From: Azolla caroliniana
Lineage: Eukaryota > Plantae > Polypodiophyta
DNA length: 64,000 nucleotides
Direction: 5' to 3'
NCBI GenBank assembly: GCA_043228905.1
Contig: JBHGNT010000009.1
Coordinates: 7,192,001-7,256,000 of the forward strand
In this document: positions 3,637 to 29,225 of the stretch, piece by piece
Numbering within the stretch: the stretch's first letter is position 1
Layout of the letters: every line of letters begins with the position of its first letter
Notes under the pieces: model-generated
Database searches by the model: none
Seen by the model: only the letters and a program-made list of their open reading frames with translations
What the model was told of the DNA's origin: nothing
Translations under genes and position numbers: made by a program

Positions 3637-5715
3637 TCATATTCGGAGAGCCAGCTGGGGTAAGGAGAGGGGTCTGAACGGTGGAGGGGTCCGTCGCACC
3701 GGGGGTGAGGGCATGTTCAAGGCGGCTTTGGACGTGCGGAGTTGAAGGATGTCCTTTTCGAGGTCGGCGCATTGGCGACGGTGTTTGATGAGGAGACATC
3801 GATTTCGTTCATTGGCGACTTCGACTTGGTGGATCATGGCGTCTCGTTCAGCCTTGAGGGTGGTGATCTCGCTCGTGAGTTGGTGAGTGGTGGCCATGGC
3901 GGTGGCCAGGGCTTCGGACCGTTCGGAGAGATCAGCCGTCACGGCTGCGAGGCGGGCCTCGGTCAGTTGGTGTTGGGTGGTGAGGCGGACGTACTCGGCC
4001 GAAAGTTCGGCATGTGTTTGCACTGCGCGTTCCTGGTCGTGGTGCCAGGTTGTCCGAGCTTGTTGGAATTCGTCAGCGAGTTGTTGGTGTTGGGTTTGCG
4101 TTGTCAGGAGTTCTTGCTTGAGGAGGTCGTGGGCGGCCGCTTGGCATGCGTTGGTATGGAGGGCGCTCCGTACCTCAGCGACCAAGATCTCGTTCCGTGT
4201 AGTCGTCTCATGTTGGTCGGTGGCAGTCTGTTGGGCCTGTGCCTGAACTTGAAGTAGGCGACGGTTCACGACGACAGTCATCTTTAGGAGTCAGCCACCA
4301 TGTCGGTTAAGGGTTTGGGGGGGACAGTGAGGGAGGGGGTAGGGTGGGTAGTAACTGTAGTGAGGGAGGTCGAGTAGGGCACGGAGGTCGAGAGGGGGGG
4401 TGGCGGAAGCGCGGTTGTCATTTGGGCGGGGGCGATGGTGGGCTGGAGGGGAACTACCGGGGTTGCGGTCGGGGGCCGGTCGGGGGTTTCAGTGTCGGGA
4501 GCGGCGTGGCGGGCGAGTTTATGGGGTCGGGGTTGTGGGATGTCGTCGGTGGTGGTGGACGGGAAAGGTGGGGTAGTTGTGGCCGGAGCGGGGGGAGAGG
4601 ACTTGTGGGGTGGAGGGGTTGGCGAGGTGGGTGGAGGCGGGGTTGGCGGGTTCTGTTGGTCGCGTAAGATTGACTCAGTGGTGCAACTGCGGGAACGCGG
4701 AGTCGTGGTTGTGGTCTGATGTGACACATAGTGGAAAGTGGTGGACAAGGCTTGGATTTTGGTGGGGGTGAACTCGTGTGTCTGGAATTCCTTGACACGA
4801 TTCGTGATATCCTCAAGGGTGTCGAGGTTAGCTTCGGCTGACACGTGGGTGATCGGGGGTTGTTTGTGTGATGGTGGCCGTGCTTGTTCACCTTGGTGTA
4901 CTTGTCGTAAAAAGTTGCGTTCGGGGAGACGAAGGCGTTCGAGTTGGCCTGGGACAGTGATCTTGCAGAAGCGTTCTTGGCAGCGTACAAAGGGAGGGGC
5001 GGGGGGTCCGATGCAGAACTTTGCGCACAAGTACCAGGTGAGGAACCACGCGAAATTGACAGTCGATTTGGGCCGTGTGTGCCATTCTCAGACCCGGCGG
5101 ACAAGCTCGTGAGCCCACTGGACTGGTTGTGGGTCATGTGCCCACTTGAGGTACTCACCGATGATACGAGCGGTGGCATCGGTAGATGCGGTGTCGCCGA
5201 TTTGGGCTATGGCGCTACAACGGTCATGGAGATGGAGAGGGATTTCGGTGTAACGCCACCCTTCACGACCAGAATATTCGGCGTAGGCAACAGGAATGAT
5301 GTCGGGGACAACCCCAGGTCCTCATGGTGCGGAAGGGGGCGCCCTCGAGGGGTAAATGTAGCGTAGCACAAACGTCGGCCGTGGTGAACTGGAATGCGAC
5401 GGGGGGGGGGGGGAGTCTACGAAAGGCTGCATATTCACGTGGCTCGTATCGGGGTTGTACCTGATGAGGAAACGATTGACCAGTTCGGGTAGGACGCCCC
5501 ACGGCCCGATCCCAAGGAAGAACTTGAGGCCAACTCGTGAGAGAGTGATGAACACGTCGGGTTCGAGGTACTTGAGCTGCGTGGCGGCCACAGGAACCCG
5601 GTAAGTACATCGGGTATTGTTGAACACCTCTGGAATGACTAAGGAACCGCACCCTGCGTTGGGGTAGTATGCGTGGAGGAGTTTGATAAATTGGGGAGGC
5701 GTCATCATTGGCAAC
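3637..5715 (-). pseudogene. GypI accessory ORF (Athila ORF2/'env-like' position): globular N-terminal domain, Pro-rich linker, coiled coil; has frameshifts and stops
   Basis: Segments LPELVNRFLIRY, FTTADVCATLHLP and PVQWAHELV..NFAWFLTWYL resemble Athila-type accessory proteins (from recall, not searched). Pro/Thr-rich at 4284-4700, heptad-rich at 3637-4281. Splice-acceptor-like CTAAT-ATTTTTCTCGCAG precedes it. Confidence 0.6.
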
Positions 5716-5989
5716 CTGCGAGAAAAATATTAGTATAGGTAAATGTGGTCAAGAATTAGCAAGTATGGGTAGTTTCAATAGATTCCCCCGCTGTTTTTTT
5801 TTTGTTTTTTTTTTTTGTTTTTTAGGGAGCGGGACGTGGAGTCCTAACTACGGAGTAACTCGGTAAAATATGGTGACGAAGCAACGAGTTCGGGTAGTTT
5901 CAATAGATTCCCCCGCTGGGTTTTTTTTTTTTTTTTGGGTCCTAATTTCGTAGTAACGTTACAACGAAGGGTTATCTGGTCTAGGAGTT

Positions 5990-6370
5990 GGACTCCTCGA
6001 ATGACGTGTGGTTTGAGTAGGTGGGCTCCTCGAACAACGCGTGGTTCGAGGAGTTGGGCTGGGTGGGGACTCCTCGAACAATGGGTAGTTCGAGGGGTTG
6101 GGCTGGGTGTGGTTCGAAGAGTTGGGCCCCTCGAACACTGTGTAGTTCGAGGGGTTGAACTCCTCGAACAACGGGTAGTTCGAGGGGTTGGGCCCCTCGA
6201 ACAACGGGGAGTTCGAGGGGTTGGGCCCCTCGAACGCTGTGTAGTTCGACAGGTTGAACCCCTCAGACAACGGGGAGTTCGAGGGGTTGGGCCCCTCGAA
6301 CACTGTGTAGTTCGAGAGGTTGGGCCCCTCGAACAATGGGTAGTTCGAGGGGTTGGGTCCCTCGAACCAC
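5990..6370. repeat. 33-bp tandem array (~11 units), each with a ~10-bp inverted repeat
   Basis: Unit CCCCTCGAAC-N8-GTTCGAGGGG-TTGGG read directly at 6127, 6160, 6193, 6226, 6259, 6292 and 6325. Confidence 0.92.
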
Positions 6371-6949
6371 GAGGTGGAGTGCGCTGGAAACGGCCAATGA
6401 CGTGGGGAGGGTGAAACGACGAGGCGGCTGTCGCGGCCACCTCGGGGGGAACGAAAGAAAGAAGAGAAAGAGAGAAAAAAAACGTCGGGACGGTGGGGCA
6501 GCGTGGACGGGCAGCGCCACGAGGAGGGGCGACGGCTATGGCTGCCACGGGGGGAGTGTAGACGTAGTGTGCCGGCTATAGTCGCCACGGCTGGGAGGCC
6601 CGTAGTGTGCCGGTGACAGGAGGAGGAGGACAGCGTCGTGGCGGCAGCCATGGCCCACGCAGAGGAATGAAGGGCAGGTACGAGGGGAGTGTAGTGTGGT
6701 GTGTCAAAATGAGAGAGGGGGGGGGGGGGGGGAGGGCCTACCCGAGGCGTGGGAAAGCAAGGTGTGGAGGAGGCGAGGCGGCGAACGGTGCAGGCAACCG
6801 GTGGAGGAGGGGCGGGGATGCTGAGGGTGGGAGAAAGCCACGAACAGAGATTGGGGGGGGGAGGGGAGGAATAGTGTGAGCAAGGAGGGGGGGGAAGAGT
6901 GCTGCAGAGGGTGGAAGCGTGGAGTGAGAAGGGAAGGGACAAGCAGAAA

Positions 6950-7626: not shown

Positions 7627-9116
7627 CTACGGGGAACGTGGTAGGGGATTGGGTAAATTAAGGGCTTTTGAGGAACCTTGAGGATGCGACTGTGGAGGGA
7701 GTGTCACTCGGGTATCGTGTGAGGGTCCAGGTCCGTGACTTTTAAGGATCCAAACCTGCGGCATGTTTGTTAAGGGGGTGGGGAGGATTTGTGAAACCTT
7801 CCTACGGGGTGTTCGGTCTCTCAGTTGTTTAGGCTTGTCGCTTCCTGTGGCTTTAGCGTGGGCAGGATACTGGGCTGATGTGTGTGCTTTTCGGGTGTCC
7901 CCTGCAGGCGTGGTATGATCGCGACTGGGGAGTGGCGCCTTTGTACCAACCTTGTGCTGTTGTGAGTGTCTTTTTGACTTGCCAAATGGCGGATTCTCCA
8001 CAACGTTGCCCGTCAGCAAAAACAGCGTGAACATTCACCCATTCCCGTGGTTTGGGTGTCCGTGTTTTGACGTCAACGTCGCGCTGGTCTTGGGTGGCCA
8101 GTGGGTGTTGGCATTCGGTTTGGTTGAGCAACTCCGTGCCTTGGGGTTCATCGATGTCCCCTGCAGGCGTGGTATGATCGAGATTGGGGAGTCGGCTTCG
8201 TTTCGGAACCCAGAAGCTAGTGGCACCATTGTGCCAACCTTGTGCGGTTGTGAGTATTTTTCTGACTCGCCACACCGCACGTTCTCCGTAGCGTGGGCCT
8301 TCAGCGAACACTGCGTGGACGTTCACCCATTCTCATGGTTTGGGTGTCTGTGTTCTATTGTTAGTGTCGCGTTGGCTATGGGCGGCCAGTGGGTGTCGGT
8401 GTGTTGCTTGTTTGGGTAGCTCCACGCTTTGAGGATCAGCGAGGACAGCGAGATGTGATTCGAGTGTTGTTGCGAGGAGGTCCTCGGACTTCAGTCCACC
8501 TCCTGTTTGAAAAGAGACGATGTGTTTGCTGGGTGATAGGAGACATTCGCTTATGCGACACCAATCTAAACCAAGGAGGCATTGTGTGTGCATCACTCCG
8601 GGTGGGAGTACCCAAACTTACATTAAGTGCACACTGTATTCTGTCTTGATGTTACACCCGAAGATTCCCAGGCAACATGACGTAGACCCATCGAAGCCAC
8701 GGAAGTTGTTGTTGCACACTTCGAGGTTTGGGCAACCTAGACGTCGCCATGTTTCAAAGGAGAAAAGGGTTAGCGATACTCCTGTGTCGATTACCGCCGT
8801 CAAAGGCATGTCGTCGACACAGCATTGTAGTTGTATTGTTCCATCATTAGAGTTGGCCGCCCGAGCCATGGCTGTCGGATGGGCGTGTCCCTGTCGCTTC
8901 AATTTCGCTTGCATGTTGCGCAGGTCGGTTTCGAGACGGGCCATTCGGCCATCGGAGGCTTTAAGTTTGGCCTCTACCTCTCGTTGTCGAGCCATGAGTA
9001 GAGCCTCGTGTGTGAGGGGTCCATAGTAACATTTGAGCTTGCTCCCATTAATGAACCTGGGGATGTCAAAACCTTCGATCGTGCGTAGGCGACATGCTCC
9101 TGTCTTGGTAACCTCC
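7627..9116 (-). pseudogene. GypI pol C-terminal extension: integrase GPY tail, coiled coil, second retropepsin domain, duplicated ~96-aa repeat
   Basis: In frame with 14416-14670 across TSD CCTCC. AVIDTGVS at 8780-8788 and LLGLDW at 8561-8578 are in the same frame, separated by one TAA (8618-8620). TGA at 8333-8335. Late frameshift near 7930. Confidence 0.8.
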
Positions 9117-12100
9117 TGTTGAGAGACAAGCTCAACATCGGCCGGATCGGCTGAAGAAGCCAAGGACCGGATCGGTTGGGACCGATCGGTTAGGCCGGTA
9201 GGAAAGATATTCCGTGAGGAATATATTTGGGAGTTAGTGTAAGAGCTCTTAATGAGCATTGAAGTACTGTCAATACTTCGGTCAGTCCTCCTAGGACTTG
9301 TACAAAGTGTTCATTGAACACATATATGGTTGTTGTTGTTTTTTCCTTTAGAAAAAATATACACATATTCTTTTTGGTGTCTTCTCTCTCACTCTCTCGG
9401 TCTCTCCCGCGTATACTGTGTAAGCTCAAGCTCTCCATTAAACGTGAGTGTTCTTCCTTCTGTTCTGTCTTTATACTTGCTTCCGCATGCTACTTTCTAC
9501 ATGGTATCAGAGCGCGAGGGTTGAGAACCACAGTCAGGAAGCTTCAGCTCCGATAGGAGTTGAGCAACCTACGACAACCCGACTTGTCGGTGGCGGACTA
9601 TACCTCGAAGATCAAGGATATCTGCGACTCCCTCGCCTCCATAGAGGTGAACATCGAGGAGAGCGAGATGGTCCAGATCTTTCTCAGAGGTTTGGCGTCG
9701 AAGTTTGGAGCGTTCCGAACGGCTGTGTGTACCCAGGAGAATACGCCATCCTTTTTTGACTTAAAGTAAATGCTCCTGGTAGAGGAGAACCACGCGGGTG
9801 TGTCTACAAGCACGCACACCGACAGCAGAATGCTATACACGGAGGGAGATAGGCCTCGTGGACGTGGAGGACAAGGCGAGTCGGTGCGCAATGGAGGCGG
9901 CCGACGAGATCAAGGAAGAAGGCACCAAACTGATGCCGACAGCAACTCCGGACCCTCCGGAAACAGGGGGAGTCGAAGCGATGAGAACCGGCAAGGGAAG
10001 GCCATCGCGGAGTGCTGGTACTGTGGCAAGAAAGGCCACAGGGAAAGTGAGTGCTGGAAGAAGCGCGCCGATTCGGAGAGAACCGATTCCGGAAACGACT
10101 CCAGACATACCGACAAGGGAGATCGACAGCGATCACACTACGATGAAGACTCCGGGAGAGCCGGAGAAGGGTCTGCCTTCGTGACGAGACATGAAGCAAA
10201 CTCAATGAAACAGATCACCCCGAGATCGGACGAGGTGTGGTACGTAGACTCCGGAGCGTCAAACCACATGACGAGCCATAAGGAGTGGTTCTCGTACCTT
10301 GAAAAACTGATACAACCTGGAGTAGTCTCAACTGGAGACGACACTCCGCATCCGATCGCGAATGTTGGAGAAGTTCCCCTTAGCCATGTCGTGCAGAAAG
10401 GGAAACTCATGAACGTGTTGCACGTCCCGACAATCACGAAAAACTTGGTCTCGGTCGGACAGATCGTCGACCAAGGGATGGAGGTTCGGTATACACACCT
10501 CGGGTGCTTCATTAAGGAAGAAGGCCGTGTGATTGCGCAAGGGCGCAGAGACGGGAGGATGTTCATCCTCGACTCCCCTGACGGCGGCACCGCAATGTTC
10601 GCGAAGGGACAAAAAACCGAGCTGGACATCGACTTGTGGCACAAGCAGATAGGCCACGTCAACCACCAACGGCTTCAAGATCTGCAATCGAAACAGGTAG
10701 TGTTCGGATTGCCCAAATTTAGTGGCCGAAAGGCACAAATTTGTGAAGCCTGCCAGCTCAGGAAGCAACACCGACTTCCTTTCCCAAACGAACGAAACCG
10801 GAGCCGGAACAAGCTCGACCTTATACACTCTAATGTATGGGGGCCGGCACAAAATGTTAGTCTTGGTGGGAGCCGATATTTCGTCTCCTTCATCGACGAC
10901 CACACGCGGCACACGTGGATCTACCTCATTGAGAGGAAGAGCGAAGTCTTCGACTGTTTCCGGGACCTCAAAGGGTTCGTGGAAACGGAAACGGGACGAA
11001 AGATCAAGTGTCTGCGGTCGGATGGCGGGAAAAAGTACTTTTCCGGTCAATTCAACGGTTACCTACAAAAAATGGGAATTCGCCGCGAATTCAGTTGTAG
11101 ATACACGCCGGAGCAGAACGGCGTGGCCGAGAGAAAGAATCGGTCAGTTGTGGAAGCGGCACGGGCAATGCTGGAGGAGAATGGCTTGCCCAAGTTCTAC
11201 TGGGCCGAGGCAGTAAGGACCGCAATATACATCCAGAACCGGATCGGAGACAAGGTGTCGGCGCACGAGCTATACTTCGGAACGAAGCCGAACATACGAC
11301 ACTTGAGGGTGTTCGGTAGCATTGCGTATGTGCATATACCGAAGGAGAAAAGGAGGAAGTTGGACGCAAAGGCCGAGAAATGCATCTTGGTTTGTTACTC
11401 GGACGGGCAGAAGGGTTATAAGTGCTATAAACCTCGCACCAAACAAGCACGTGTCAGCCGCGACGTTGTCTTTGACGAGTCTGCGTCCTGGTACCTGCAC
11501 CCGACTACGAACCCCGACTCCAATCCAAGCTCTGACGATGAGGTCAGCGAGGCCGAGATGCCTCCGGATGAGCCCGAAATTGAGACTCGCGAAGAGAGTC
11601 CGATTTCACTCCAGTTAAGTGGACCGATTGGACGGCTGAGTCGGTACAACCAGTCCGATAAAGAGTCGGCGAGTAGTGGAGACTCGGCCGTGCATTCCCC
11701 GTGCAGGAAGCCGAGGAGACGGCTTACACGCAAAGAGAAAGGGAAGAAGAAGGTGTCGGATTCCGGCATGGATAGGAACGAGTCTGACCGACGCGAGTCT
11801 GACTCTGAGGGAACCGGTGACGGGTTTTTAAAGTGAAGTCCGCGTTGATCGAGAAGGCCTCGACATCGGCTAATGCGAAATTACGCCGATCTACCCGCTA
11901 GAAGAATCCTGTTTTGCCGTTCGGATACAACGAGTACATGGCGCATCATTATGCGTACATGACCCGTGTAGCGGATGTGCGTGAGCCGGAGAACTACGCA
12001 GAAGCGGCTAAAGATGCGAATTGGCGTGCCGCGATGTAGGAAGAGATGCACGCATTGGCGGAGAACGAGACCTGGGACATGGTTGATGCACCAAGAGGGG

Positions 12101-14410
12101 TAAAACCGATCGGGTGTAGGTGGATGTACAAAGTCAAATACAACACCGATGGCTCGGTGAACCGGTACAAGGCTCGGCTAGTGGCAAAGGGCTACGCGCA
12201 GAAGTACAGCATCGACTACGATGAGACATTTCCGTCGGTCGCGAAAATGACGACCGTCCATGTTTTGCTCGTAGTAGCCGCGGCCAAGGGGTGGCACCTA
12301 CATCAAATGGATGTAAAGAATGCGTTCCTGCAAGGTGACCTTGAGGAACAAGTGTACATGGTACAGCCCCCCGGAACAAATTCCTCAGCAGTATGCCGAC
12401 TGAAGAAGTCCCTTTCCGGACTGAAGCAAGCTCCGCGTGCCTGGAATGCGAAGATCACGCAACAACTGCGTCGGATGGGCTTCGTCACGTCAACATCGGA
12501 CTCTTCCCTGTTCATCCGGAAAGGTCGACTCCGACCGGTTAGTATTCTACTATATGTCGATGACTTGGTCATCACCGGCACCGACCTAGGCGAAATCGAC
12601 CGCATGAAGCTCTAGCTTGCGGCATCGTTCGACATGAAGGATCGGGGGGACCTTCATTACTTCCTCGGGATCGAAGTGATCCGTACCCCCGAAGGCATAT
12701 TGATCAGCCAACGTCATTACGTGCTGGGTATGCTCTTCAAACTCGGGATGGCCGGCTGTAAGTCCGTCTCGACTCCCCTAGACAAAACCATCAAGCTTCG
12801 TCCCGATACGGGAGAGGTATGCGACCCGACGAGGTTCCGACAAATTGTCGGAAGCCTCATATACTTGACCATCACCCGGCCCGACCTCAGTTATCCGGTC
12901 GGGGTGATCAGTCAGTTCATGGCGCGACCTACCAAGGAGCACCTTCAATGTGCGCAACGCGTACTGCAGTACGTAAGTGGCACTAAGGACCGAGGACTGC
13001 TATATCGGACCGGTGCAGCCGCGCAGTTAGTCGGCTACACCGATGTTGATTGGGCTAGCAACGCCGCCGATCGCCGATCCACGTCCGGATACGCGTTCTC
13101 CCTCGGGAGTGCCGCGATCGCTTGGAGTAGTAAGAAGCAGTCGACAGTTGCACTGTCGAGCACCGAAGCTGAGTACCGAGGAGCGGCTGTCGCGACATGC
13201 GAAGCCATATGGTTGAAGCGGCTACTTAAGGACCTGCAAGCGGAGGTGTCAGATCCGACGACGATCTACTACGACAACCTCAGCAGCATCCAGCTTGCGA
13301 AGAACCCCGTTTTCCACACACGGACCAAGCACATTGAGGTAAACTACCATTTCATCCGTGAGCATGTCCTTTCCGGTGAAGTCGAACTTCAGTACGTGCC
13401 AACGGATCGGCAGACTGCTGACATCTTCACAAAGCCTCTTGGTCTGGACAAGTTGCGGCAATTCTCAGGTGCGCTCGGGTTGCGTCACCTCGATGTGCCG
13501 AACTTGAGGGGAAGAACAGTCCCGAACGACCAAGCAAGGCAATAGGAAAGGAGCGGAGACCGCGACACCGAGTCGGTTGACAAGTTCGACTTCGGATCGG
13601 CTGAAGAAGCCAAGGGCGGACGCGCAGAAAAGTCTGGAAGCGGAAAGAAGGGGAGCAGCCGAAGGAGAGAGCCGAAGCCAACCATGCATGGGGGAGATGA
13701 CGCCATCGAGGGCGAGAAGACTGAAGACAAGTTGGAGACAGCCAACTCGGACGAGAGCGAAAATCGATCGGAGGTAGCCGAGTCGGTTCGGATGTTTGAT
13801 TCAGACACGTTGAATCAACCGAGGCCCAAGCGGAAGAAAAGTCAGCAGAAGAAGTGTCGACACCGCAACAGCAGAAGAGCTGATAAGGGCCACATGAGCA
13901 GACAAGCCGACCGGAAGGGTCGAAGTGCGCGGAGTCGAACAGGTCGAGGAGCGCGAGCGAGGCGTGAAGCCAGGAGGAACCGGAGCTGTGAAGATCCCGA
14001 AGAGCCTCAAGTTGAGCTTGAGGGGGAGTGTTGAGAGACAAGCTCAACATCGGCCGTATCGGCGGAAGAAGCCGAGGACCGGATCAGTTGGGACCGATCA
14101 GTTAGGCCGATAGGAAAGATATTCCGTGAGGAATATATTTGGGAGTTAGTGTAAGAGCTCTTAATGAGCATTGAAGTACTATCAGTACTTCGGTCAGTCC
14201 TCCTAGGACTTGTACAAAGTGTTCATTGAACACATATATGTTTGTTGTTTTTTCCTTTAGAAAAAATATACACATATTCTTTTTGGTGTCTTCTCTCTCA
14301 CTCTCTCGGTCTCTCCCGCATATACTGTGTAAGCTCAAGCTCTCCATTAAACCTGAGTGTTCTTCCTTCTGTTCTGTCTTTATACTTGCTTCCGCACGCT
14401 ACTTTCTACA
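9117..14410 (+). mobile_element. CopB: full-length decayed Ty1/copia element
   Basis: LTRs at 9117-9501 and 14029-14410. TSD CCTCC at 9112-9116 and 14411-14415. PBS TGGTATCAGAGC at 9502-9513. PPT AGGGGGAG at 14021-14028. Confidence 0.97.
9523..13545 (+). pseudogene. CopB gag-pol; N-terminally deleted, several stops and a frameshift
   Basis: Motifs CWYCGKKGHRESEC, WYVDSGAS, LRSDGG, YVDD, ADIFTK. Stops at 9554, 9767, 11899, 12037 and 12613. Confidence 0.92.
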
Positions 14411-14415
14411 CCTCC

Positions 14416-17400
14416 GAAACCACATACGGGCCTTCGCCCCGTAGCTTCAACTTCTTCTTGTGTCGTTGAGAGGAGAATTTGAGGGCCATGTCGCCTTCCG
14501 CGAGGTCTTTGTTCTTGACTTTATTGTGGTGCCACACCTTTCTATTAGCTTTCTCTGGCAAGAGTGCCTGGAATGCGAGAAGGCGAGTTTCTGTCAGTCG
14601 TTCTAAGTTCTTTAGGCGTGATGGGAGGGGGTCCCCTTCCCATCGTTCCTGTACGGCGATCCTGAGGCTGGGTAAAGAAACTTGATGGGTAATATTGCTT
14701 CTTGCCCGTACACCAGTTTGAATGGTGTGTGGCGAGTTGCGACTTTGTAGGAAGTACGGAAAGCCCATAATGTTGCTTGGAGTTTGGTGCTCCAATCAGA
14801 TCGGGAGGCAACGACTATCTTTGTGAGTACTGCACATAGCACCTTATTCGTGCTTTCCACTTGTCCGTTGCATCGAGGGTAATAAGGAGAATTTTTGCGA
14901 TGTGTCACCATAAACTCGCCTAATAAATGTGCTATCACCTCGTTCAGGAAATGTGAGCCTTGGTCACTAATGATTTCGAGCAGACATCCAAACTGTACGA
15001 TGACATTTTCATATAGGAATTTGGCATTACTACGCGCGTCGGCGTTAACGCAAGCTTTGGCTTCAACCCACTTGGTGGCGTAGTCGGTGGCGGTTATTAT
15101 GTATCGGTTGAGGTTGGAAGCTGGGCTGATTGGGCCGATAAAGTCGATACCCCATTTCTCGAATGGTTGCCATGCCACCACCGAGTTTAACGTATTAAAA
15201 TCCGCTTTTAGCGGGTGTTTGAAATGTTGGCACTCGTCATAGCGACGTACGTACGTGTATGTGTCTTTGAAGAGTGTTGGCCACCATAGGCCGGACTGAA
15301 GGATCTTGCGCGCAATGATCTCGTGATTGAAATGACCACTTCCGCTCCCGCAATGAGCTTGTTCGAGGGTGGTGACGATGTCATGGTCTGTTATACACCT
15401 CCGAAGTAGATCGTCGTTACCCCGACGGTACAGATTGCCTCGGAGCATCGTGAAGGGGCCACATTTCTTTAGCAAGGCACGCGCATGTGTTCGTGGTAGT
15501 TGTTTTAGGAAGGACGCTCCTTCGGTTAGGACGTGAACTATGTCTGATGCCCATGCTGGTACGGTATCAATCGTGAATAATGCTGCATCTGGTGTTTCGT
15601 CATCGACCCCAGTGGCTTCTTCTTCATTGGGAATCCGGGAGAAATGATCGGCGAGTACATGGTCTTTCCCTTTTCTCATTACTACCTTGAAGTCGAGTAA
15701 CGTTACGATCCATCGTGAGATGCGTCCAGTGGCGTGAGTTTTGTTTACTAAGTAGAGTAGGGCCTGATGGTCTACAAAAAACGAGAACCAGGATGCCAAC
15801 AGGTAGTGGCGGAATTTCTTTATGTTGTAGACCATGGCCAAAGCCTCCCGTTCCGTCGTGGAGTAATTTCGTTCCGCGGCATTTAGCTGGCGACTAGCGA
15901 AGGTGACCGGTAGGTCGAGTGCCCCTTCACCGGGTTGGGCTAGCACTGCACCAATCGCGAAGGCGAAAGCGTCGGTGTGCACATGGAATTCTTTGGTCCA
16001 GTCGGGAGGCTGGAGGATGGGGGCCTTAGTTAGGCACTCTTTCAAGAGCTTGAAGGAGTATGTGCATTCCTCTGTCCACACGAACTGCTTTAATAGGGAG
16101 TAGAGTGGTCTAGCCTTGTCCGTGAACATCTTAATGAAGCGTCTATAGTAACCCGCGTATCCCATGAACCCTTGTAGTTGTTTCTCGTTCGTGGGGGGTG
16201 GCATGTCGAGGATGAGTTTTACTTTTGCCTCATCGGTCGAGATCCCGTGGCGGGACACGACGTGTCCTAATATTATTCTGTGCTTGACCCAGAACTGACA
16301 CTTGAGCGGGTTGAGAGAGAGTTGATAGGTTCTGCATTTTTCGAACGTCAAACGGAGTAGCCCGAAGTGGTCATGCCATTTCGAATTGCAACATAAGTCG
16401 TCAACATAAGACTCCACCCCTTGTCGTAACCTTGCGGCAAAGATATGGTCCGCTGCTCTTTGGTAGGTGCTCAAGGCGCTCGTGAGTCCGAAAGGCATCT
16501 GTTTATACGCGAACGTACCAAATTCCGTGGCGAAAGCTATCTTGTGTTGATCCTCAGGGACCACCGAGATTTGGTTCCCGTGGTTCTTTCGAGTAAATGT
16601 TCGATGTAGGGTACCGAGTAATTGTCCTTGATAGTGGCTTCGTTAACTTGGTGGTAGTCTATACATATGCGGATCTGGCCGTTTTTCTTTGGGACAACCA
16701 CAATTGGGGAGACCCAAGTAGTTCGTTTGATTGGGTAGATAATGCCTGCAGCTAACATTTTGTTGATTTCGGCTTTCACTTGTTGGGCGTAGTTAGGATT
16801 CATTGGACGTGGCCTTTGCCGGATTGGGCGGGCGTCGGCTCGCATGGGGATACTATGTGTGACGACCTCGGTTGGAACTCCCTTCATGTCGATGTACGAC
16901 CATGCAAACACATCGCTAAATTCCGTGAGGAGAGTGATCAAGGACGCCTCCTCGTCCGGTTGGAGATCTGTAGCTATAAACACCGGTTTGGAGTCTGTCC
17001 CTTTCCCAAGGTTGATTTCTTTCACCCTTGTTGGTCCATTATAGACTTCTCCTAGGCCTTGGGGGTTGCGTTGCGGTCTCTTACAAGCCACTGCCCTACT
17101 CCGTTGTTCATAGAGTTTGAAATGCTCTGGGAAGTCCGCTTCCGTCACCGCCTCTTGAGTGGTCGTGATGTCACCTGGACATGTGACTCGTTGTACCAGT
17201 TCTTCGTCCTCTACATCTACGTCTTTTCGCCGGGGACCTAGGGTGGTGACGTTGAAGCACGAGATTGTCTCTCCGTTCTCGTCACAACACTTTGTACCTA
17301 TAGGGTACATTGCGTCGGTTGTGGCGAGAGCGTGCACCCAATTCATTTTTGACGTCTCGGAGGTGACGGATTGGTCGTCTCTCTCACGTGCGTTCTCCTC

Positions 17401-20400
17401 TTTGGAAGTGGTGGGGCTTTGAGGAAAGTGTTGGACTCTGGTCAAGAGTTGAACTGTCTTCGTGGGGTTGCACGCTAGGAGGTTGGTGTCGAAGTCAGTG
17501 GTTTCTGACCAATCGTCTACGAGAGGGCTGCCTTCTTGTTCATGCACTTTTTGTGTGTACGCTTTGATGCGAAAGGTTTTGTTGTCCTTTCACATATAGA
17601 TTACATCGTTCCCAAAATCCATGACCAGGCGGCTTATATGTAGGAATGGTCTTCCTAGTAAGCACTCGTAGGCTACATGGTTGGACGATCTTGTGACGAC
17701 AAAGGTGAGATTGAACTCCACTCCGTGGATAGTGAAGTGATGCGCAGGAATCATGCCTTCCGGTCTTTGGATGGACCCGTCTGCCATTCGTAGTTTGACC
17801 TCGGAAGGCATCATTTTTGGGCTCCCCCACTTAGTACGCCAACATTCGTAATTGACGATACTTACCCCTGCTCCGGTGTCAATGATGGCGTCACACGTCT
17901 TACCATTGACACAGACTGGTAGAGTGAAACTAGTGTCGTCGCTCTCGAAGTGGGCTTTGTGGACATCAACTGGCGGTCCTTCGGGTTGTTTGAGGACTGT
18001 GGACGTGCGAGGAGTGTGGGTGTGTATCCCTTCACCATATCCCGCTGATAGGCCACCATTGAGGCGTCGGAGGACGTCATGCCACGGTTGAACGTCGAGT
18101 TTGAGTAGTTCTTCGAGCGTGAACTCTATTTCTTTGGCGAGTAGTGGTCGTAGCAGGGGGTTGTCGGTGGTGAAGGTGCCAATGTAGCTCTGCACTTCGC
18201 GTAATGTGAGTCGCAATCTTAAATTTAAGATTTGTTGGAGTAGAGTTGTGTTGACCTCTTTGATCAAGGTAGGATGGCAAACGGGGGTGTCAGTTGGTGT
18301 GACAAAGGGGGGAGGTGAGGGGTTTACCCATTCTTCTAGTTGCTCGAAGTTTAAGCTTGGGAGGCTAAGTGATTTTTCAAACTATTCGTGGTCTATGAGT
18401 TTGATGTATTCTTCTACTTTTTGTTTCTCAGATACTGGATTTGGGTATGCCGCTAGGTGCACCGGTAGTTCTTGATTCGGATTGACGGGTAATGTTTCTG
18501 TGTCTCCCTCTGGTTCTTGATCTTGTTTTGAGGTCTTAGTGGAATTATTCTTCCTAGATTTGCGTCTCTTACGCGCGGTCACGGGGAGACCTTGATCTTG
18601 GTATTTTAAATTGTGCGCTACTCATTGGGCTCGTGTGATGACATTGGCACCGATCGTGGATGGCACAATGGACAACAGATTTGTGCCGACCCTTTTCTTC
18701 TTTTCCGGGCAATCAGGTACTAGGTGTTCTTTACCGCACCCTGGGCATGATGCTTCTCTTTGGAACCATTCGATGAGGGCTTGTGACTGTTGGGTGGGCC
18801 CTTGCGCCAATGGTTGCGGGGGCGTGTCGAGTGGGAGGTGTCGTGGTCGTTGGGCCATCCGGTTGTAGTACTCATGTTTGGTTGGGCACTCGCTAACCAT
18901 ATGTGGGCCTTGGCAGTTGAAGCATTTCAATTCTAACCTCCTCAGACCATTGTTGTTGCAGTATCCCATAGGGGGTCCACGTTGTTCCCCTCTCAAGACC
19001 TACACTAGTATTTGGTCGCCTTCAAAATCCACAAAATGGGACAACACCTCTTCGTCAATGCCATACTCCTTGTACGGGTCTTCATATTCGGGGGTGCTCG
19101 TTCCGACCTGGGTTTGGTTATCTGTGGTATACTCCAGTTCAGCGAGGCGGGCACCGATGCACGGTAGTGGGGGTTGTTGAGGGAGTATCGCTGGTAGTGG
19201 TGGGCGGCTAAGTGGTGGGGGGGAGCGTGGGTGTTCCACCATTGGCGTTTGGCCATATCTTCCAGTGGGGGCTTGCCAACAGTTCTCTTGTGTATGCATT
19301 ACGAAAGCTTTGCACCACTTATAGTATTGCGGTCATCGTTGATGAAGGAGGGGACACTCATGTCCTGTGTGGTGTCTGTGACATACCGTGCACCTTACAT
19401 TTTCTCGTTGGGCGTATGCTTGGGGTCTTTCTATACGGGGTGTTCGCGGTGGTGTGGGTAGAGCAGGGGTGGGGTCGGAGGATTTCTCGCGGTTGTTCGT
19501 GGGTGTGTGAGTGGGTATGTGTAATCCACTCATCGAATCTTCAAAGGTCATCACTACTGTGCAGGCTTCAGCAAACGATCGACACATCCAGGCAATCAGG
19601 AAATTTTGGAGTGTCGTATCAAACAACCCATTAATGAAACGGCTCATCAACTTGTCATCCGACATCTTGTCGTTCGGACTACAACGATGATGCAAGCTTT
19701 TCGTGCAACGTATGTAGTCCCTGACCATTTCGTTTGCTTCTTGTTTGAGGGCGAAAAGTTGGTCAATCGGGTTCCATTTATTCCATCTACGAGCAAAGTT
19801 TATCAAGAAATCCTCGATGACGTACTCGAAATCGGCGGCGATGTCTTCATTCAAGGTTCAAAACCAGATTCCGGCTTGGTCGTCAAGTGTGAGTCCAAAC
19901 GCGGCTACCTTGGTGATCTCTGTGAGGGGTTCATAAGCGCGGCAAATCTGTTTGAACTTCTCGACATGGTCATAGGCATCGCCGAAACCGAGGAAACGGG
20001 GTACTAGTTTAGAAATGGAAGCACTCTTCCCACTGTCATTTGTGAGGTTTCTCGGATGGTATATGGGTGCTCGCTCTTTTTCCATCAATGCTACAAGAGT
20101 TTGTATGGATTGTAGCGCTAGTGCGAGTTCGGCATTTGGAAGTGTAGGGGTAGCTTGGTCAGGTGTAGGGATTGTGCCCATGTGTGGTGGTATCGGGTGT
20201 CGTTGTGCACGGGTTTCGTTCGGGCTATCGCCCGTTGTGCTCGAATGCGGTACGGGGCTGTGCTCCTGACTTCGGCGGTGTATGTGCGACGAAGTTTCTA
20301 GGCGGTGAAGTTTTTGTTGCACTCGTGCGAATCTATCCTTCCTTTCTGCCAAAACAGCTTCGATATCTCGAGTGGTGCTTTCCGGTTGTCCTCCTTTCGC

Positions 20401-20709
20401 AATTTGTACCGTCGATAGATTGATTTTGTGTTCTATCACTCGTAACTCTTGCGATGCGTCTCGTATATGTCGTTCTACACTGAGTGGGTCTGCCATTGGG
20501 CTCTCTTGTAGTGGGGGTGTGTTGAGAAGTGCTTTAGTTCCTGGGCTCGATGGGAGGTTCTTGTTTGGTAATATCCCCGGAGTTAGCCACCCTTCGTGGT
20601 ACTGAGTCGGGTTAGGCGGGCCAGCCTCGCGGGTTTGGTCGGTTTGTGTGGACTCTTCCAGGCGTGCGGGTCGGGTTTTGAACATTTCTGTCCACGAGGA
20701 TCCGGCCAT
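14416..20709 (-). pseudogene. GypI gag-pol (Gag, zinc knuckles, protease, RT, RNase H, integrase)
   Basis: The ORF pieces from 20709 to 16537 share one frame broken by stops. Motifs LKQEANEMVRDY, IIDTGAG (17872-17880), WVSPIVVVPKKNG, YVDD, HTDA..EREAL..DHQAL, KWGIDFIGP, SDQGSHF, GPY. Frameshifts near 16565 and 14675. Confidence 0.93.
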
Positions 20710-20734
20710 GTTTTCTGGTCAAGCTTTTTTATAG

Positions 20735-20995
20735 GTTCGTCGAAGGGTGAATCTTCGTCGAAGGATGAATCTTCGTCGAAGGATGAATCTTCGTCGAAGG
20801 ATGAATCTTCGTCGCAGGTTGAAGATTTGTCACAGGTTAAATCTTCGTCGAAGGATTAATATTCGTCGAAGGATGAATGTTCGTCGAAGGAGGAAGCTTC
20901 ATCGCAGGTTGAACCTTCGTCGAAGGACGGATGTTCGTCGAAGGTTGAATGTTCGTCGAAGGTTGAGTCTTCGCCGAAGGTTGAATCTTCGACGA
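20735..20995. repeat. 18-bp tandem repeat (~14 units, TGAATCTTCGTCGAAGGA) in the GypI leader
   Basis: Read directly from the sequence; lies immediately upstream of the gag ATG at 20709. Confidence 0.9.
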
Positions 20996-21136
20996 GCTTT
21001 GCATGGGAAATTCAAACTTTTTGGCGCCAACGGTCGCTTCGTGACCCGTGGAGTGATCGTAAGCCGCGAGACTCGCGGTGATTATGCTTGCCCCGTAACG
21101 ACCTAAACCTCCACAATGTTTAATGTTAACCGAGCG

Positions 21137-21441
21137 AAAAAACAGAAAATGGAACTTAATTAAACTATGAAACGATGAGAAAATAGAAAATGGAACTTAA
21201 TTAAACTATGAAATGATGAAAAAACAGAAAATGGAACTTAATTAAACTATGAAATGATGAAAAAAACAGAAAATGGCACTTAATTAAACTATGAAATGAT
21301 GAAAAAAACAGAAAATGGCACTTAATTAAACTATGAAATGATGAAAAAACAGAAAATGGCACTTAATTAAACTATGAAATGATGAAAAAAACAGAAAATG
21401 GCACTTAATTAAACTATGAAATGATGAAAAAACAGAAAATG
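21137..21441. repeat. 43-45 bp tandem repeat (~7 units) in the GypI leader
   Basis: AAAAACAGAAAATGG(A/C)ACTTAATTAAACTATGAAATGATG repeated. Confidence 0.93.
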
Positions 21442-21528
21442 GTGGTTCTCTTGCGATTTCTTCCTTCGTTGAGTGGTTTGCCTCCGAGTTTTTGACTACT
21501 CGAAAATGGGCTTCAAGCGTCGGTCGTA

Positions 21529-21546
21529 TCCCTGGCAGCGGCACCA
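21529..21546 (-). promoter_or_regulatory. GypI primer-binding site, tRNA-Asp type
   Basis: TGGTGCCGCTGCCAGGGA versus the Athila consensus TGGCGCCGTTGCCGGGGA (3 transitions). It sits 6 nt inside the LTR end. Confidence 0.8.
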
Positions 21547-22705
21547 AATAGATGTTAAGGATCTATGTATCAATGGAGTAAGCTCCTCGATTTCGTGGCG
21601 GGATTCGGACCGGCGTATACCATCTTGATGGCGAATCGGGCGGAGATGGTTGTCGGATACCTCCGAGCCTCACACTCACTCAACGATTAGTAAATGATTA
21701 AGCACGATATCTCTCTCACTCTCTCAAGCTCTCTCTCATAAACAATAGATCAATAGTATAGACAATAAGAAGCAAGAGTATGTCTATTATTAACCCTCTT
21801 TGCTAAGAGTTCTAGCACCAACAAGGAGAGAGATTAGTGTTCTCTAACTCAACACTTCACTAATCTCTCTTAAGCTCAAAGGTTACAAGAAAGAGGGGAG
21901 GAAGCTCTAGCTCTAATCAATAGGAGATCTTTACAAATGGGAGAACCCCCACAAACCCACTACTATGTGGTTTATATAGCTTTCACGTTTAGGGTACGAG
22001 CCTTTCACATTTGGCCGTCTCTTTGCTTTCCTTTCCTCTTGCTGTTTCCTCTTCGTACTACGTTGTCGCGTTACTACGCGCGCGCGTGGAGAAACGAGGC
22101 GGGACCACCGGGGTCTTGAACCGAAGAGCAGGTGATAGGAGGGGAAAGAGAAAGAGAGAGACGACCAATTACGTATGAGCAAAGAAACACAGGGACACGG
22201 CCCGTCAACGCAAAAAACACGAATGGACACAGAGACAGAGAGACACGAATGTTTGTATATTAACGAATAACAAATACACAACAGAGCACGCGAGCAGTTA
22301 CAACCGAACAAGCCGGTGAACAGATGCTGATGCCTGTTCGTCTGCGCACAAAAGGGGATAGGATGGAGGTGCTTCCGGAAGCACACGGGCGTTCCTCGAA
22401 GCAGCGCGAGCCTCCCGAAAACCTGCAGAGAAGAGCAATAGAGAACAAACAGAGGAGAAGCGTTCGGTTACGGTCCAACAGCACTTCGTCCTCCTCAATG
22501 CGCGATGCCCTTCTCCCCGTGTCTCCCTCTCTTTTATAGCTTCAAGAAGGGAGCCGTCTCCCTCATTTACTTCCCACCTACCGAATCTAACTACCCAGGA
22601 TATACCTATGTACCTAATTCTCTATTATATACATTAAGGGGCGCGCACGCGTGAAGAGCCGGTTCACGCGCGATATGCACCGATTGCTCTAAGGGAAGGT
22701 TTTCT

Positions 22706-25700
22706 TCACGACATCCACCCCCACCTAACCGCGCATCCACCGGTATGCGCCAAAATTGTGTTCTGGTTGGAGAAAACCGGTCCGGGTTTCGGTTCCTCGT
22801 CCATCGGTTCGTCCTCCGTCTCGGACCGTTCGTCGTCGTTGTCCAGGCCTCTTAGATCCGGTTCGCCGTCGTGGCGCTTCTTGAACGCTTTGATCCGCTT
22901 CCCTGCTACCAGTATCGCCATCCTCGTATCGTCGAGTTCCACCAGGTGATACATCCCGTGGTCGTTGGCGCTCATTACCACGTAAGGCCCGAACCACCGC
23001 TTTGCAAACATCAGTGTTGCCCGGTGCTGGTTGTCGAGGCTGCTGTCGTAAACTAGCACCCAGTCGCCTTCCTCGATTTTCTTTGGTCGGAGCCAGTGCG
23101 TTCGGTTGAACCGGGCTTTGTTCTTCATCCTCGCCATCCGAAGTCTCTCCGCCACTCGTTCCATGTCCTCTCGCCTCCGCTCGAGCTGCCGTATACGCGC
23201 GGCTAGCAGTTCTTCCCGACTCATCTCGTCTCTCCAGTCTATTGTCGCCCAAGAGGAGATCGTCTGTTCCATCAGCATGATCGGTTTCTGGCCGAACATG
23301 AGCTCTGACGGCATGAACCCAGTTACCGAACTGTGCGTTGTCCGGTCCGCCCACAAGGCATAAAGTAACAGCCGTGGCCAGTTCCAGACTTGGCCTCCGC
23401 ATGCCCGGACTAGTGCTTTGACGATCGGTCCGTGTCCGCGCTCCACCTTCCCGTTCGCCTCCGGATTGTACGTTGTGGTGAGCGAGAGCTTCACCCCTAA
23501 CCGGTCAAACAGCTCCTCGGCCTCTTCGGCGTCCAACTCCCCGCGGTCAGCCACGATCTTCCCGACGCACCCGTACCGGTATATCACGTCCTCGATCAGG
23601 AACCGACACACGGCCGCGGTCGTTTTGTTCTGCAGGGCTCGGCCTTCCACCTGGTTCGTCAGGTCCTCCCGGGCCAGCACCAGATATCGCATCTGCCGTA
23701 CGCCCAGCGGCTTCGTCACCAAATCTACCATCCATTTGAAGTGGATGGCTGGAGGGTATGTAGGGTGAAGCTCGTCCCGATGTCGAACTATGGAGTGCAT
23801 CTGACAGCTCTCACAAGTTGTCACGAACCGATGCACGTCCCGGTATAGTCCCGACAACCAGTACTTCCCCTTCAGTTTCTCGAACGTGGCCCACGTCCCA
23901 CGGTGTCCAGCCCAGGGGCTGTCGTGGTAGGCCTTCAGCAACTCCTTCTGTTCCTCCTCCATAGCCACCACTCGGAGCGGGATGCCGTTTCTCTTCTTCG
24001 GGTGCTTCCATAAGTATCCGTCCCGGACAAAGAATCGGTATGCTTTCTTCCGGATCCGGTTGGCCTCGTTCTTTGTCCATGACGCGTCCAGCGTCATCGT
24101 CCTCAAGAATCCCCCAATCTGCAGCCACTCCCCGTTGTACTTGCTCTCGTCGAAATCGTTAAGCGCCGGAGTGCTCCCTCCCTCGGTTGTTATGTAACCC
24201 GCCTCGAAGAAGTCCACGCCGACTTCCTCGTCCTCCGAAACCATGCCGCCCTCGTCGTCGAATCGCGCCCTTGAAAGCATGTCGGCCATGGCATTGTCTT
24301 TCCCGGAAATGTGTCGTATTTCCGGATCCAGGGACTTGATGTACGCTATCCACCTGAGCATTGCCAGGTCCGGGGTTGCGCATCCAGAAACCATGCCGAG
24401 AATCGGCAGGCAGTCCATCTCGATAATCACCTCTGTCCCGATCAGATAGTCTTTATCGGCCTTCACTGCCGAAACAATACCCCAGAGTTCGCGTTTAACC
24501 TGGGCGTATCCTCGCTGTCGCTCACTGAGGACCTTCGCGCCGAACCGAATTGGGAACCGAATGTCGTCCTCATCTTCTTGGTTGACGACCCATCCGATCC
24601 CGGTCAGACTTGTATCTACCGTTATGTAGATGGGAGTACCTTTCTCGTAGACACCCTTCCGGAGTGCCGGAGTTGCAGCAAGAGCCTCCTTCATCTTTCG
24701 GACCGACTCCGTATGCTCGTCTCGCCACTCAAATTTTCGCCCCTTTTTCAGCAACCCATATAGCGGCTCGGCAACGTGGGCGTAGTGCGGGATCCATATG
24801 TGGTAGAATGCGCATGCTCCCAAGAACCTTCGTACCTCCGTGACCGAGTTACAGTCAAGCTTCATTGCGGATATGGCTTCCACCTTAGCCGGAGACGGTT
24901 TCCGGCCATACGGTCCGCATAGATATCCGACGACCATGATCTCTGATTGCCCGAAGGCCGATTTCTCCCCGGAGAAGGTGAGCCTCACGTCCTCTAGCCT
25001 CTGCAGCACCCTCTCGCAGTCGTCAATGTGTGTCGCCACGAATCTCCGGCATCCGTCCGGTCCGATCGTTTCGTCCTTTTCCATCACCGGACATCCCTTG
25101 ATCGGGATGTCGTCCAAGAATGGCATGGTCATGTCCGGGATACAATCCCTCAGCACGTTGTTCATCGCATTCGCCATGTGGGCCACCGAGTTCGTCCCTC
25201 CTTGTGGTAGGGTACACATCCGCACTAGGCCGAGAGGAGTCCACATCGTCGTAATGTCTCTGCTCTCTATAGCTAGTTGGAACTGATCGTACCCTGAGTA
25301 CAGATCACCGATCGAGTAGATCGACCTTCCGGCGAAGGCCTCCGCGAACTCGTCTATCATTGGTCCGATTCCTGCGTTCCGAATGGTCACTCCGTTGACC
25401 GGTTGCAGGTCTTGAATGAAGCGCAACGTCCCGTTCTTCTTTGGTACGGTAAACCACCGGTTCGAGTACGGGGCACTCGACGGTTCGAGGATGCCCATAT
25501 CGACTTTCTGCCTCAACAGCTCCATCAGCTCCGGGATGTGAGCTCTCGGTACCGGAATTGGTTTGAGATTCCACGGTACATGCGGTACCGTGAATATCAC
25601 CATCGGCTTCACGACTGTCGGGTCTACGCACCCGATCTCTTCCGGTGAGAATGCGAAGGCTTTCCCGTGCCTTCCGAGCATTCTCCGAAACCGGTCTTCT

Positions 25701-26293
25701 TCCGCCGGCAGTAGGAACCCGCCCCCACCGATTTTGAGCTCCCGTAGCGTTCTGTCGGTGAAGGTGTGTCCTATGCAGGCCCGATCTCGTAAACTGGGGT
25801 CCGACGCGACCCCCTTGATTCGCAACTCGCTGCCCTCCGGTAAGGGTGCCGCGACTGGCCTTACCTTCCGGTCCACAGTCTTGTACTTTGTGTTAACTCG
25901 GGCCGTCCAATCCGACTCGAGCCCTCGACTGAAGTCCGCGATGACTTCGTACATCTCTTCTGAACAAACCGGTATCGTCCGGTCCTCTTTAAGGCCCTCT
26001 CCGACCACCTCTCGCAGTATTCCCAAGGTATCGTCGAAGGAGACCGCCTCCACGGCTCCGTTGATTTCCTCGCTGGGCCCGAGAACTCCGCACGCCCGAA
26101 GTCGCTCTTCCGCCCTTGTCTTTTCTCAGCCTACGACGCCGACTATTGTACACCCTCCGTTGTCGGAGAACCAAAACTTCCTACTTATGGTACAAGGTTT
26201 CTTCGGTTTCGCCTCTATCGTACATTTGTGGGGTTTTCCCGGAGTGTCCGGTCTGTCGTGGCCCCACGCCTTGACAGCCCTCTCTAAAAATCC
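22706..26293 (-). CDS. GypII-a pol (RT, RNase H, integrase); 1115-aa open stretch, with one stop at 26126-26128 in the N-terminal spacer
   Basis: Motifs NRWFTVPKKNG, LPQGGTNS, PFLDD, KRELWG, HDSPWAGH..CESC, KWMVDLV, ADRGE, NGKVERGH, RWFGPY. Confidence 0.9.
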
Positions 26294-28410: not shown

Positions 28411-28432
28411 CTTCTGCTCCTCTGCCGCCTGT

Positions 28433-28450
28433 TTCACGTCGGGTTCACCA
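28433..28450 (-). promoter_or_regulatory. GypII PBS complementary to tRNA-Trp
   Basis: The plus strand reads TTCACGTCGGGTTCACCA, matching the plant cytosolic tRNA-Trp 3' end as I recall it. Identical at 54877-54894. Confidence 0.82.
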
Positions 28451-29225
28451 AATATGTCGTTTTACTACGCGCGCGCGTGGAGAAACGAGGCGGGACCACC
28501 GGGGTCTTGAACCGAAGAGCAGGTGAAAGGAGGGGAAAGAGAAAGAGAGAGACAACTAGTTACGTATGAGCAAAGAAACATAGGGACACGGCCCGTCAAC
28601 GCTGAAAACACGAATGGACACAGAGACAGAGAGACACGAATGTTTGTATATTAACAAATAACAAATACACAATAGAGCACGCGAGCGGTTACAACCGAAC
28701 AGGCCGGCGAACAGATGTCGATGCCTATTCGTCTATGCACGAAAGGGGATAGGATGGAGGTGCTGCCGGAAGCACACGGGCGTTCCTCGAAGCAGCGCGA
28801 GCCTCCCGAAAACCTGCAGAGAAGAGCAATAGAGAACAAACAGAGGAGAAGCGTTCGGTTACGGTCCGACAACACTTCATCCTCCTCAATGCGCGATGCC
28901 CTTCTCCCCGCGTCTCCCTCTCTTTTATAGCTTCAAGAAGGGAGCCGTCTCCCTCATTTACTTCCCACCTACCGAATCTAACTACCTAGGATATACCTAT
29001 GTACCTAATTCTCTATTATATACATTAAGGGGCGCGCACGCGTGAAGAGCCGGTTCACGCGCGATATGCACCGATTACTCTAAGGGACGGTTTTCTTCAT
29101 GACAACGTCCTTGTTGATGCGTTCTTATTCGTGATTGGTTGTGTTGTTATCCCAACGCTTAACAATTATTATTATCGTTTCTCTCTCATATACATGTGTT
29201 TGTGTGTGTATGTGTTCGAGAAGGG

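Follow-up and report, generated by a model that had tools for sequence, protein, structure and literature searches.

Layout of the locus

The window analysed here is a 64,000-nucleotide stretch of Azolla caroliniana DNA (GenBank assembly GCA_043228905.1, contig JBHGNT010000009.1, positions 7,192,001 to 7,256,000), and all coordinates below refer to it. On its minus strand lies a Ty3/gypsy element of at least 13 kb, excluding two insertions. It is a dead copy that carries six stops from gag to the reverse transcriptase (RT), frameshifts and the two nested insertions, one of which is a younger copia element that breaks the coding frame. Unless stated otherwise, the features described are on the minus strand.

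The 5' LTR is in two pieces. Its first part (29102..29164) aligns with positions 457-519 of a metagenomic locus, L003, and a second gypsy element lies between it and what follows; the remainder (21553..22063) aligns with L003 535-1202, the alignment resuming at 22057, and its end was placed by a CA that falls just before the primer binding site. That site (21529..21546) starts with TGG and may resemble a tRNA-Asp site. The gag region (18400..20709) contains several stops, is colinear with the metagenomic locus L002 and matches Pfam Retrotrans_gag (E 1.7e-7). The canonical protease, PR1 (17599..17922; Pfam PF13975, 37.4 bits), follows with its DTG at 17872-17880, and is thus still present as the initial annotation had it. 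A spacer of about 280 residues with no Pfam family separates PR1 from RT (about 16800-17590 in the window; residues about 980-1260 of the related protein P0010), and the frameshifted stretch at 14416..17000 covers RT, RNase H and the integrase as far as its GPY motif (Pfam RVT_1, RT_RNaseH, Integrase_H2C2 and rve).

The younger copia element (9117..14410, plus strand) sits just past the GPY motif of the minus-strand gypsy integrase. It has TG...CA ends, a CCTCC target duplication at 9112-9116 and 14411-14415, LTRs identical at 370 of 382 columns, and the Pfam domains SH3_retrovirus, gag_pre-integrase, rve and RVT_2; it is absent from the metagenomic loci L001, L002 and L003. The flanking gypsy frames are in register, with the integrase GPY on the far side and EVTKTGACRL... 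on the near side, and three contigs of a public sequencing run (X2) pass straight over the empty insertion site, so that excision at CCTCC does rejoin the gypsy frame as had been proposed.

Across this junction the frame runs from the end of the integrase through a helix of 45 residues into a second retropepsin, PR2. The final 34 residues of the integrase GPY module lie at 9014..9115, and a charged helix of predicted coiled-coil type, between integrase and PR2, at 8888..9013 (helix 512-551 in the model of a sister protein). PR2 itself (8504..8839) holds a DTG at 8780-8788, a flap at 8684-8704, one in-frame stop at 8618-8620 and LLGLDW at 8561-8578, in keeping with the initial reading of the frame beyond GPY. 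Past PR2 lies a poorly conserved linker (8336..8503; dN/dS 0.9-1.4), and the frame then crosses a second stop (8333-8335) into a module, here called AQG, that is present twice. The first AQG module (EWVNVH...AQGW) lies at 8219..8332 behind that stop, and a duplicate of linker and module follows at 7931..8154, being 75% identical to 8219-8442; the module is single in L001 and L002. It is an unnamed but conserved motif, W-x-PK-x-x-L-x-AQG-[WY]...W-x-PK, lies in a basic tail where W-x-PK words recur, and is carried by the window (7931-8442) and by the proteins P0053, P0103, P0136, P0155-P0158, P0161 and P0162; in the model of the sister protein P0005 it forms two strands and a helix (pLDDT about 80).

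A separate, frameshifted sense accessory ORF (3637..5729) would belong to the element by its position and orientation. Its middle is rich in Pro and Thr and its C-terminal part helical, and no Pfam family was found in it at cut-off. Directly ahead of its ATG stand a word resembling a branch point, a run of pyrimidines and CAG, which suggest a candidate splice acceptor and a spliced subgenomic RNA. The window yielded no 3' LTR, the 3' end of the element being interrupted by another copia near 3330. Tandem arrays occupy non-coding parts of the element at 6074-6400, 20693-21034 and 21139-21470, with periods of 33, 18 and about 41 bases, and between the 33-base array and the accessory ORF (5770-5940, minus strand) an A-run followed by CAGCGGGGGAATCTATTGAAACTACCC occurs in two copies.

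The second gypsy element (22064-29100, minus strand), which lies within the 5' LTR of the dual-protease element, has a 4-base ACGT duplication on both sides, 650-base LTRs, a DHG protease motif and DUF4100; a preference for NCGN is noted for Phygy elements by REXdb (PMC6317226). In an internal comparison, the neighbouring gypsy element of the window ends 58 residues past the integrase tail, without a second protease.

Sister copies and public sequencing runs

A search of longer proteins gave one match among 1,011 candidates, P0002 (62% identity over 257 residues, E 2.5e-105), whose cluster has 22 members. Among the 15 of these covered by domain scoring, P0002, P0007, P0008 and P0010 carry both proteases in a single chain, P0005 and P0015 begin after PR1 and hold integrase and PR2, and the remaining scored members are fragments. 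In metagenomes, five loci with the module were confirmed among 42 pattern matches. Locus L002 is a single ORF of 2,573 codons that reads GAG-PR1-RT-RH-INT-helix-PR2-AQG tail with no stop and no insertion, and at the site of the window's copia L001-L003 run on uninterrupted; these loci and their unbroken ORFs come from short-read assemblies, which may merge several copies. The dual-protease architecture proposed from the window alone is thus borne out by L002 and the single-chain public proteins, and the contrary expectation, that sister copies would stop right after the GPY module, failed, since the sisters read on into PR2. It had also been argued that the nested insertion hides PR2. This applies to the window copy; elsewhere, public proteins hold both proteases in one chain.

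The two stops in and behind PR2 were followed in four public runs. A letter other than that of the window accounted for 750/799, 360/387, 501/537 and 32/32 of contig depth at the first stop (8620), and for 1069/1532, 727/743, 512/659 and 24/24 at the second (8335). Both stops are therefore minority states in all four runs, because most contig depth carries another letter.

PR2 as a predicted retropepsin

With X placed at the stop, the PR2 of the window passed the retropepsin profile Pfam PF13650 (26 bits against a cut-off of 24.3; E 1.6e-5), as the initial annotation would lead one to expect of the rejoined frame. The rear protease of a distant relative, P0156, matched PF13975 with 35.5 bits (cut-off 28.2), and several distant PR2 copies scored below the curated Pfam cut-off. 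About a third of aligned residues are identical between PR1 and PR2 of one element, and a W-x-x-W/L-G-S-P motif is common to both. Among solved structures, the best sequence match to PR2 was human DDI1, a weak one (E 0.046).

In the predicted model of P0005, PR2 has a half-pepsin fold with flap and the hydrophobic-hydrophobic-Gly motif (pLDDT 85-96) and is preceded by the helix at residues 512-551; the integrase part of the same model is unreliable (mean pLDDT 56). Ddi1 domains were the best structural matches (Foldseek E 1.7e-8; VIA Z 15.7 against 7d66, rmsd 2.3 over 117 residues), with retroviral proteases at Z 12.7 and lower. The likeness to the Ddi1 domain (PDB 3s8i and 7d66) extends from the fold, the closest solved one, to the D-[TS]-G-A motif and to C-terminal strands that form the sheet of the modelled dimer. 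Ddi1 is, however, a cellular protein with 16-21% identity to PR2, and a shared fold is no proof of common function or origin.

Retropepsins need dimerisation to work. Two copies of helix plus PR2 were modelled as a homodimer with a score of 0.68, while none of three controls exceeded 0.00; contacts agreed in at least 83% between runs and pLDDT was at least 74. In a microbial benchmark of solved structures, 21 of 30 homodimers and none of 23 monomers attained the mark set for this score; in a eukaryotic one, 17 of 29 homodimers and none of 30 monomers did so. In the predicted interface Asp586 and Thr587 pair across, and the flap and C-terminal strands are included; from the helix, residue 534 alone is named. 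Interface positions were invariant in 24 of 37 cases against 37 of 74 elsewhere, which is no significant difference (p=0.16). The score above the controls that the proposed dimer modelling gave stands for likeness and not for binding, and the model may be reproducing like dimers that are already solved.

Selection on PR2 and the neighbouring domains

dN/dS was estimated by simple counting between the window copy and L002 (dS about 0.5-0.9), so the rates rest mainly on that one deep pair. The values were 0.04 for GAG, 0.05 for RT, 0.04 for RNase H, 0.04 for the integrase core and 0.07 for the GPY module. PR1 gave 0.06 (0.09-0.10 with transitions weighted 4-8 times) and the helix 0.06-0.10, as against 0.27 for PR2 (bootstrap 95% interval 0.15-0.47), which rose to 0.39-0.44 with the same weighting (upper bound 0.76). 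Behind PR2, the linker gave 0.90 (1.2-1.4 with transition weighting), the AQG module 0.25-0.34 and the tail 0.58. PR2 differed from PR1 at p=0.001 and from the linker at p=0.027. Among five copies of PR2, 8 of 10 pairs lay at 0.20-0.30 and two close pairs at 0.10 and 0.43 with wide intervals, the pairs being non-independent. PR2 is under purifying selection that is looser than that on PR1; it evolves about four times faster than PR1, and faster than every other enzyme domain measured.

The flap and the DTG region of PR2 are constant within the window family. Across the wider alignment, the catalytic Asp is present in all 44 rows that have a residue there (2 of 46 rows stop short), and D[ST]G at the active site is found in the window and in 32 of 43 complete rows, a count drawn with a search profile itself biased toward D[ST]G. 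The motif is missing in 11 of the 43, including three close sequences (L004, L005 and P0019, with Ile after Asp), and Ile, Leu, Phe or Met follows the Asp in several such rows. Most of these changes lie a single C-to-T step away from Ser/Thr and could represent decay, or possibly relaxed catalysis. In the four public runs no change of the Asp codon is listed at the 2% level, while an adjacent silent base varies at 2-9.5% in three of them; the Ile-after-Asp change appears in run X5 alone (29/1240 depth), in contigs, which lose rare variants.

These observations bear on a role in which PR2 mainly binds, either pairing with PR1, and so postponing or adjusting maturation, or dimerising integrase, with catalysis secondary. 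The relaxed constraint, the Ile, Leu, Phe or Met residues after Asp (in three close sequences among others), the equal amounts of PR1 and PR2 that a single ORF yields and the predicted intact dimer surface would all suit it. A pure scaffold would not need the Asp, however, which is kept in 44 of 44 rows at 16-31% identity; D-L-G occurs also in another retroelement-type protease, P0047, and need not mean inactivity, and PR1 and PR2 share only about one third of their residues. We consider a chiefly binding role improbable.

The integrase-helix-protease module in distant families

Among 1.84 billion cluster representatives a profile search returned 136 matches, and a further search gave 8 among 7,991 scored candidates; the search was designed for PR2, and its matches carry no information on the share of the lineage that has it. 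An in-frame protease lies behind the integrase tail in 25 of the 34 proteins that match the tail profile, and the other nine are short or end soon past the tail, P0153 ending on the catalytic Asp. Outside the window family the module was found in 15 clusters, or 16 counting P0153. Eight of these 16 (P0038, P0103, P0153 and P0155-P0159) had not been used in profile building; in seven of the eight, the protease is also detected independently by Pfam. Between the window family and the 16 others, identity is 16-31% in PR2; in the integrase C-terminus, against distant families, it is 35-60%. The motif W-x-[PR]K-x-x-L-x-x-Q-G-[WY] follows PR2 in the window family and in nine distant proteins, and this shared downstream AQG motif argues for a single origin of the whole module.

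Fern relatives by name are Adiantum nelumboides MCO5604957.1 and Ceratopteris richardii KAH7428004.1. P0038, a fern-like integrase-protease fragment from a contig of 1,653 bases, is assigned by NCBI and UniRef to Enterobacter cloacae complex sp. GF14B and is likely plant contamination. No DNA around distant relatives was found among viral contigs (P0018, P0156, P0157, P0160 and P0015) or genome contigs (P0038 and P0156), and the ESM Atlas gave nothing but leads under 0.9, or no match. Two further arrangements were seen: P0160 has two tandem Integrase_H2C2 domains ahead of the integrase core, and P0031, P0036, P0054, P0069, P0092, P0120, P0138, P0151 and P0060 have two or three tandem retropepsin domains. 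No RT or integrase was found in those of the latter that were scanned, and they are possibly single-chain protease dimers.

It is barely credible that PR2 is a neutral passenger, whether a piece left by some other insertion or an artefact of assembly. Such a passenger would account for the stops in and after PR2 in the window copy, for unbroken ORFs that come from short-read assemblies and possibly from merged copies, and for the nine of 34 integrase-tail proteins without a protease behind. Against it, the in-frame fusion recurs in 25 of 34 proteins and about 16 divergent clusters, the other nine being short or ending soon; PR2 is under purifying selection next to a neutral linker; Pfam finds neither gag before PR2 nor RT after it; and both stops are minority states in four of four runs. 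The suspicion that PR2 might be a one-off fragment can accordingly be set aside.

Two proteases in one element were shown for the window family alone, because the distant-family fragments start at the integrase. The rear protease might then be a relocated main protease, with many families built as GAG-RT-RH-INT-PR after loss of the front one and the window family having kept or regained PR1. Distant families are indeed known only from fragments that run from the integrase onward, and in Tat elements the original RNase H decayed after another was added (PMC6317226). In the window family, however, PR1 is the more constrained of the two proteases (0.06 vs 0.27), the opposite of the Tat pattern, and the protease precedes RT in 8,452 of 8,453 plant Ty3/gypsy elements of REXdb, a set filtered for domain order (PMC6317226). 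Relocation therefore appears quite improbable.

Origin and classification

Protease trees were built on about 112 columns. In a tree of 146 rows made with a quick method, 31 PR2 or PR2-like rows grouped together (SH-aLRT 96), with the window family and P0159 outside. In AU tests on 37 rows picked from the 146, a single PR2 clade was not rejected (p 0.53), and neither was placement of PR2 with PR1 (p 0.44 and 0.36). The phylogeny of PR1 against PR2 that had been called for is thus compatible both with one PR2 clade and with descent from PR1.

By Pfam, the window pieces and P0010 show the Ty3/gypsy order GAG-PR-RT-RH-INT. The integrase has the GPY/F motif; no chromodomain was found by Pfam after the integrase in the window, P0002 or P0010, and no additional RNase H was detected, Pfam finding the native RT_RNaseH alone in P0002 and P0010. 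The distance from the end of RNase H to the integrase HHCC is 102 residues. By these sequence features the element fits a non-chromovirus of Athila-like type. It resembles the OTA superclade (Athila; Tat 'zero') as described for REXdb (PMC6317226) in its GAG-PROT-RT-RH-INT order without chromodomain or added RNase H, and in its large size, extra 3' ORF, tandem arrays in non-coding parts and tRNA-type primer binding site; it differs in having a second PROT after INT inside the polyprotein.

Other elements also extend the integrase C-terminus, the closest precedents being the post-integrase RNase H of Tat elements and the OTU/Ulp1 proteases behind GPY in Ginger1. Chromoviruses likewise have an extra domain there, theirs a chromodomain and here a predicted enzyme. 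Those Tat elements in which an additional RNase H follows the integrase (TatIII; structure 3 in PMC13468544) share a second copy of a core enzyme class at that place, but their added domain is an RNase H and the original is said to decay, whereas the window family adds a protease and PR1 stays the more constrained. Ginger1 elements (Bao et al. 2010, PMC2836005) have a protease C-terminal to a gypsy-like integrase with GPY/F; unlike the window family, they are DNA transposons with cysteine proteases (OTU, Ulp1) and have no Gag, RT or first protease.

A full-text literature search, with GyDB, Repbase and subscription journals outside its scope, returned no description of a second aspartic protease after the integrase. 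REXdb (Neumann et al. 2019, PMC6317226) recognises eight domain types and removed elements with multi-copy domains as likely mispredictions, and the word fern is absent from its main text. Its supplement was searched over 5 files (17,418 characters), the large element tables lying outside this set, and these may bear on novelty.

Discussion

We read PR2 as a likely active, dimeric protease that has a limited part in the maturation of the polyprotein of the element itself, general processing being left to PR1, and we give this reading a probability of roughly 0.45. Because retropepsins work as dimers, PR2 would become active at places where polyproteins or multimers of integrase accumulate. Gag and pol form a single ORF, so that PR2 would be produced as part of each polyprotein and packaged along with it; PR2 would then dimerise where polyproteins concentrate in the particle, perhaps aided by multimerisation of the integrase through GPY and helix. 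PR2 might cut a few C-terminal sites, for example in the hydrophobic strand that separates it from the helix and in the linker that leads to the tail; the integrase would then keep the helix, and PR2 and the basic tail would be set free. The hydrophobic strand after the helix recurs across families, and we infer from sequence that it could be a cleavage site.

With few substrates, PR2 could evolve about four times faster than PR1 and yet keep its active site. The helix likely stays with the integrase, because it is constrained as strongly as the integrase, and PR1 likely still makes most cuts, because it is tightly constrained. Self-release alone would leave PR2 dispensable, so this model needs a use for the tail or the helix. 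Two of its components have precedents, in that PR processes the polyprotein of LTR retrotransposons (PMC6317226) and GPY/F mediates multimerisation (PMC2836005).

PR2 could instead act on host proteins, being freed with the basic tail or entering the nucleus with the integrase, and cut a silencing, repair or chromatin factor. The OTU and Ulp1 proteases of Ginger1 stand at the same place behind a gypsy-like integrase, and an action on host ubiquitin/SUMO pathways has been proposed for them (PMC2836005). PR2 also evolves faster than all other measured enzyme domains, with 16-31% identity between families, its nearest solved fold is that of the cellular protease Ddi1, and W-x-[PR]K words recur in its basic tail. 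Yet there is no sign of positive selection, dN/dS lying clearly below 1, with a flap and a DTG region that do not vary within the window family; the W-x-x-W/L-G-S-P motif is shared with PR1, as expected of a retroelement protease; and the Ddi1 match may merely reflect which relatives have been solved. Host proteins as the main targets thus seem rather unlikely.

A broader picture, which we regard as doubtful, would join several of these elements: an old and widespread fern lineage with two proteases that divide the labour, in which PR1 would mature the particle and PR2, switched on by integrase multimerisation through the helix and steered by the AQG tail, would travel with the integration complex and cut host chromatin or silencing proteins.

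Judged by its recurrence in sequence, the second protease behind the integrase is a real, conserved, lineage-level architecture of Ty3/gypsy elements. The literature describes LTR retroelements with one aspartic protease before RT, as far as the sources consulted here extend, and the PR2 lineage forms a conserved exception, its catalytic Asp intact at under 30% identity. Current annotation would filter out dual-protease elements, as the main plant reference set drops duplicated domains (PMC6317226). The lineage would offer a natural two-enzyme system for the timing of polyprotein processing and for the action of a retrotransposon protease on host proteins. In Tmesipteris, Athila-type elements can be the main gypsy class (PMC9916801), and the PR2 module may serve as a structural hallmark of a group of elements that is poorly classified in fern genomes.
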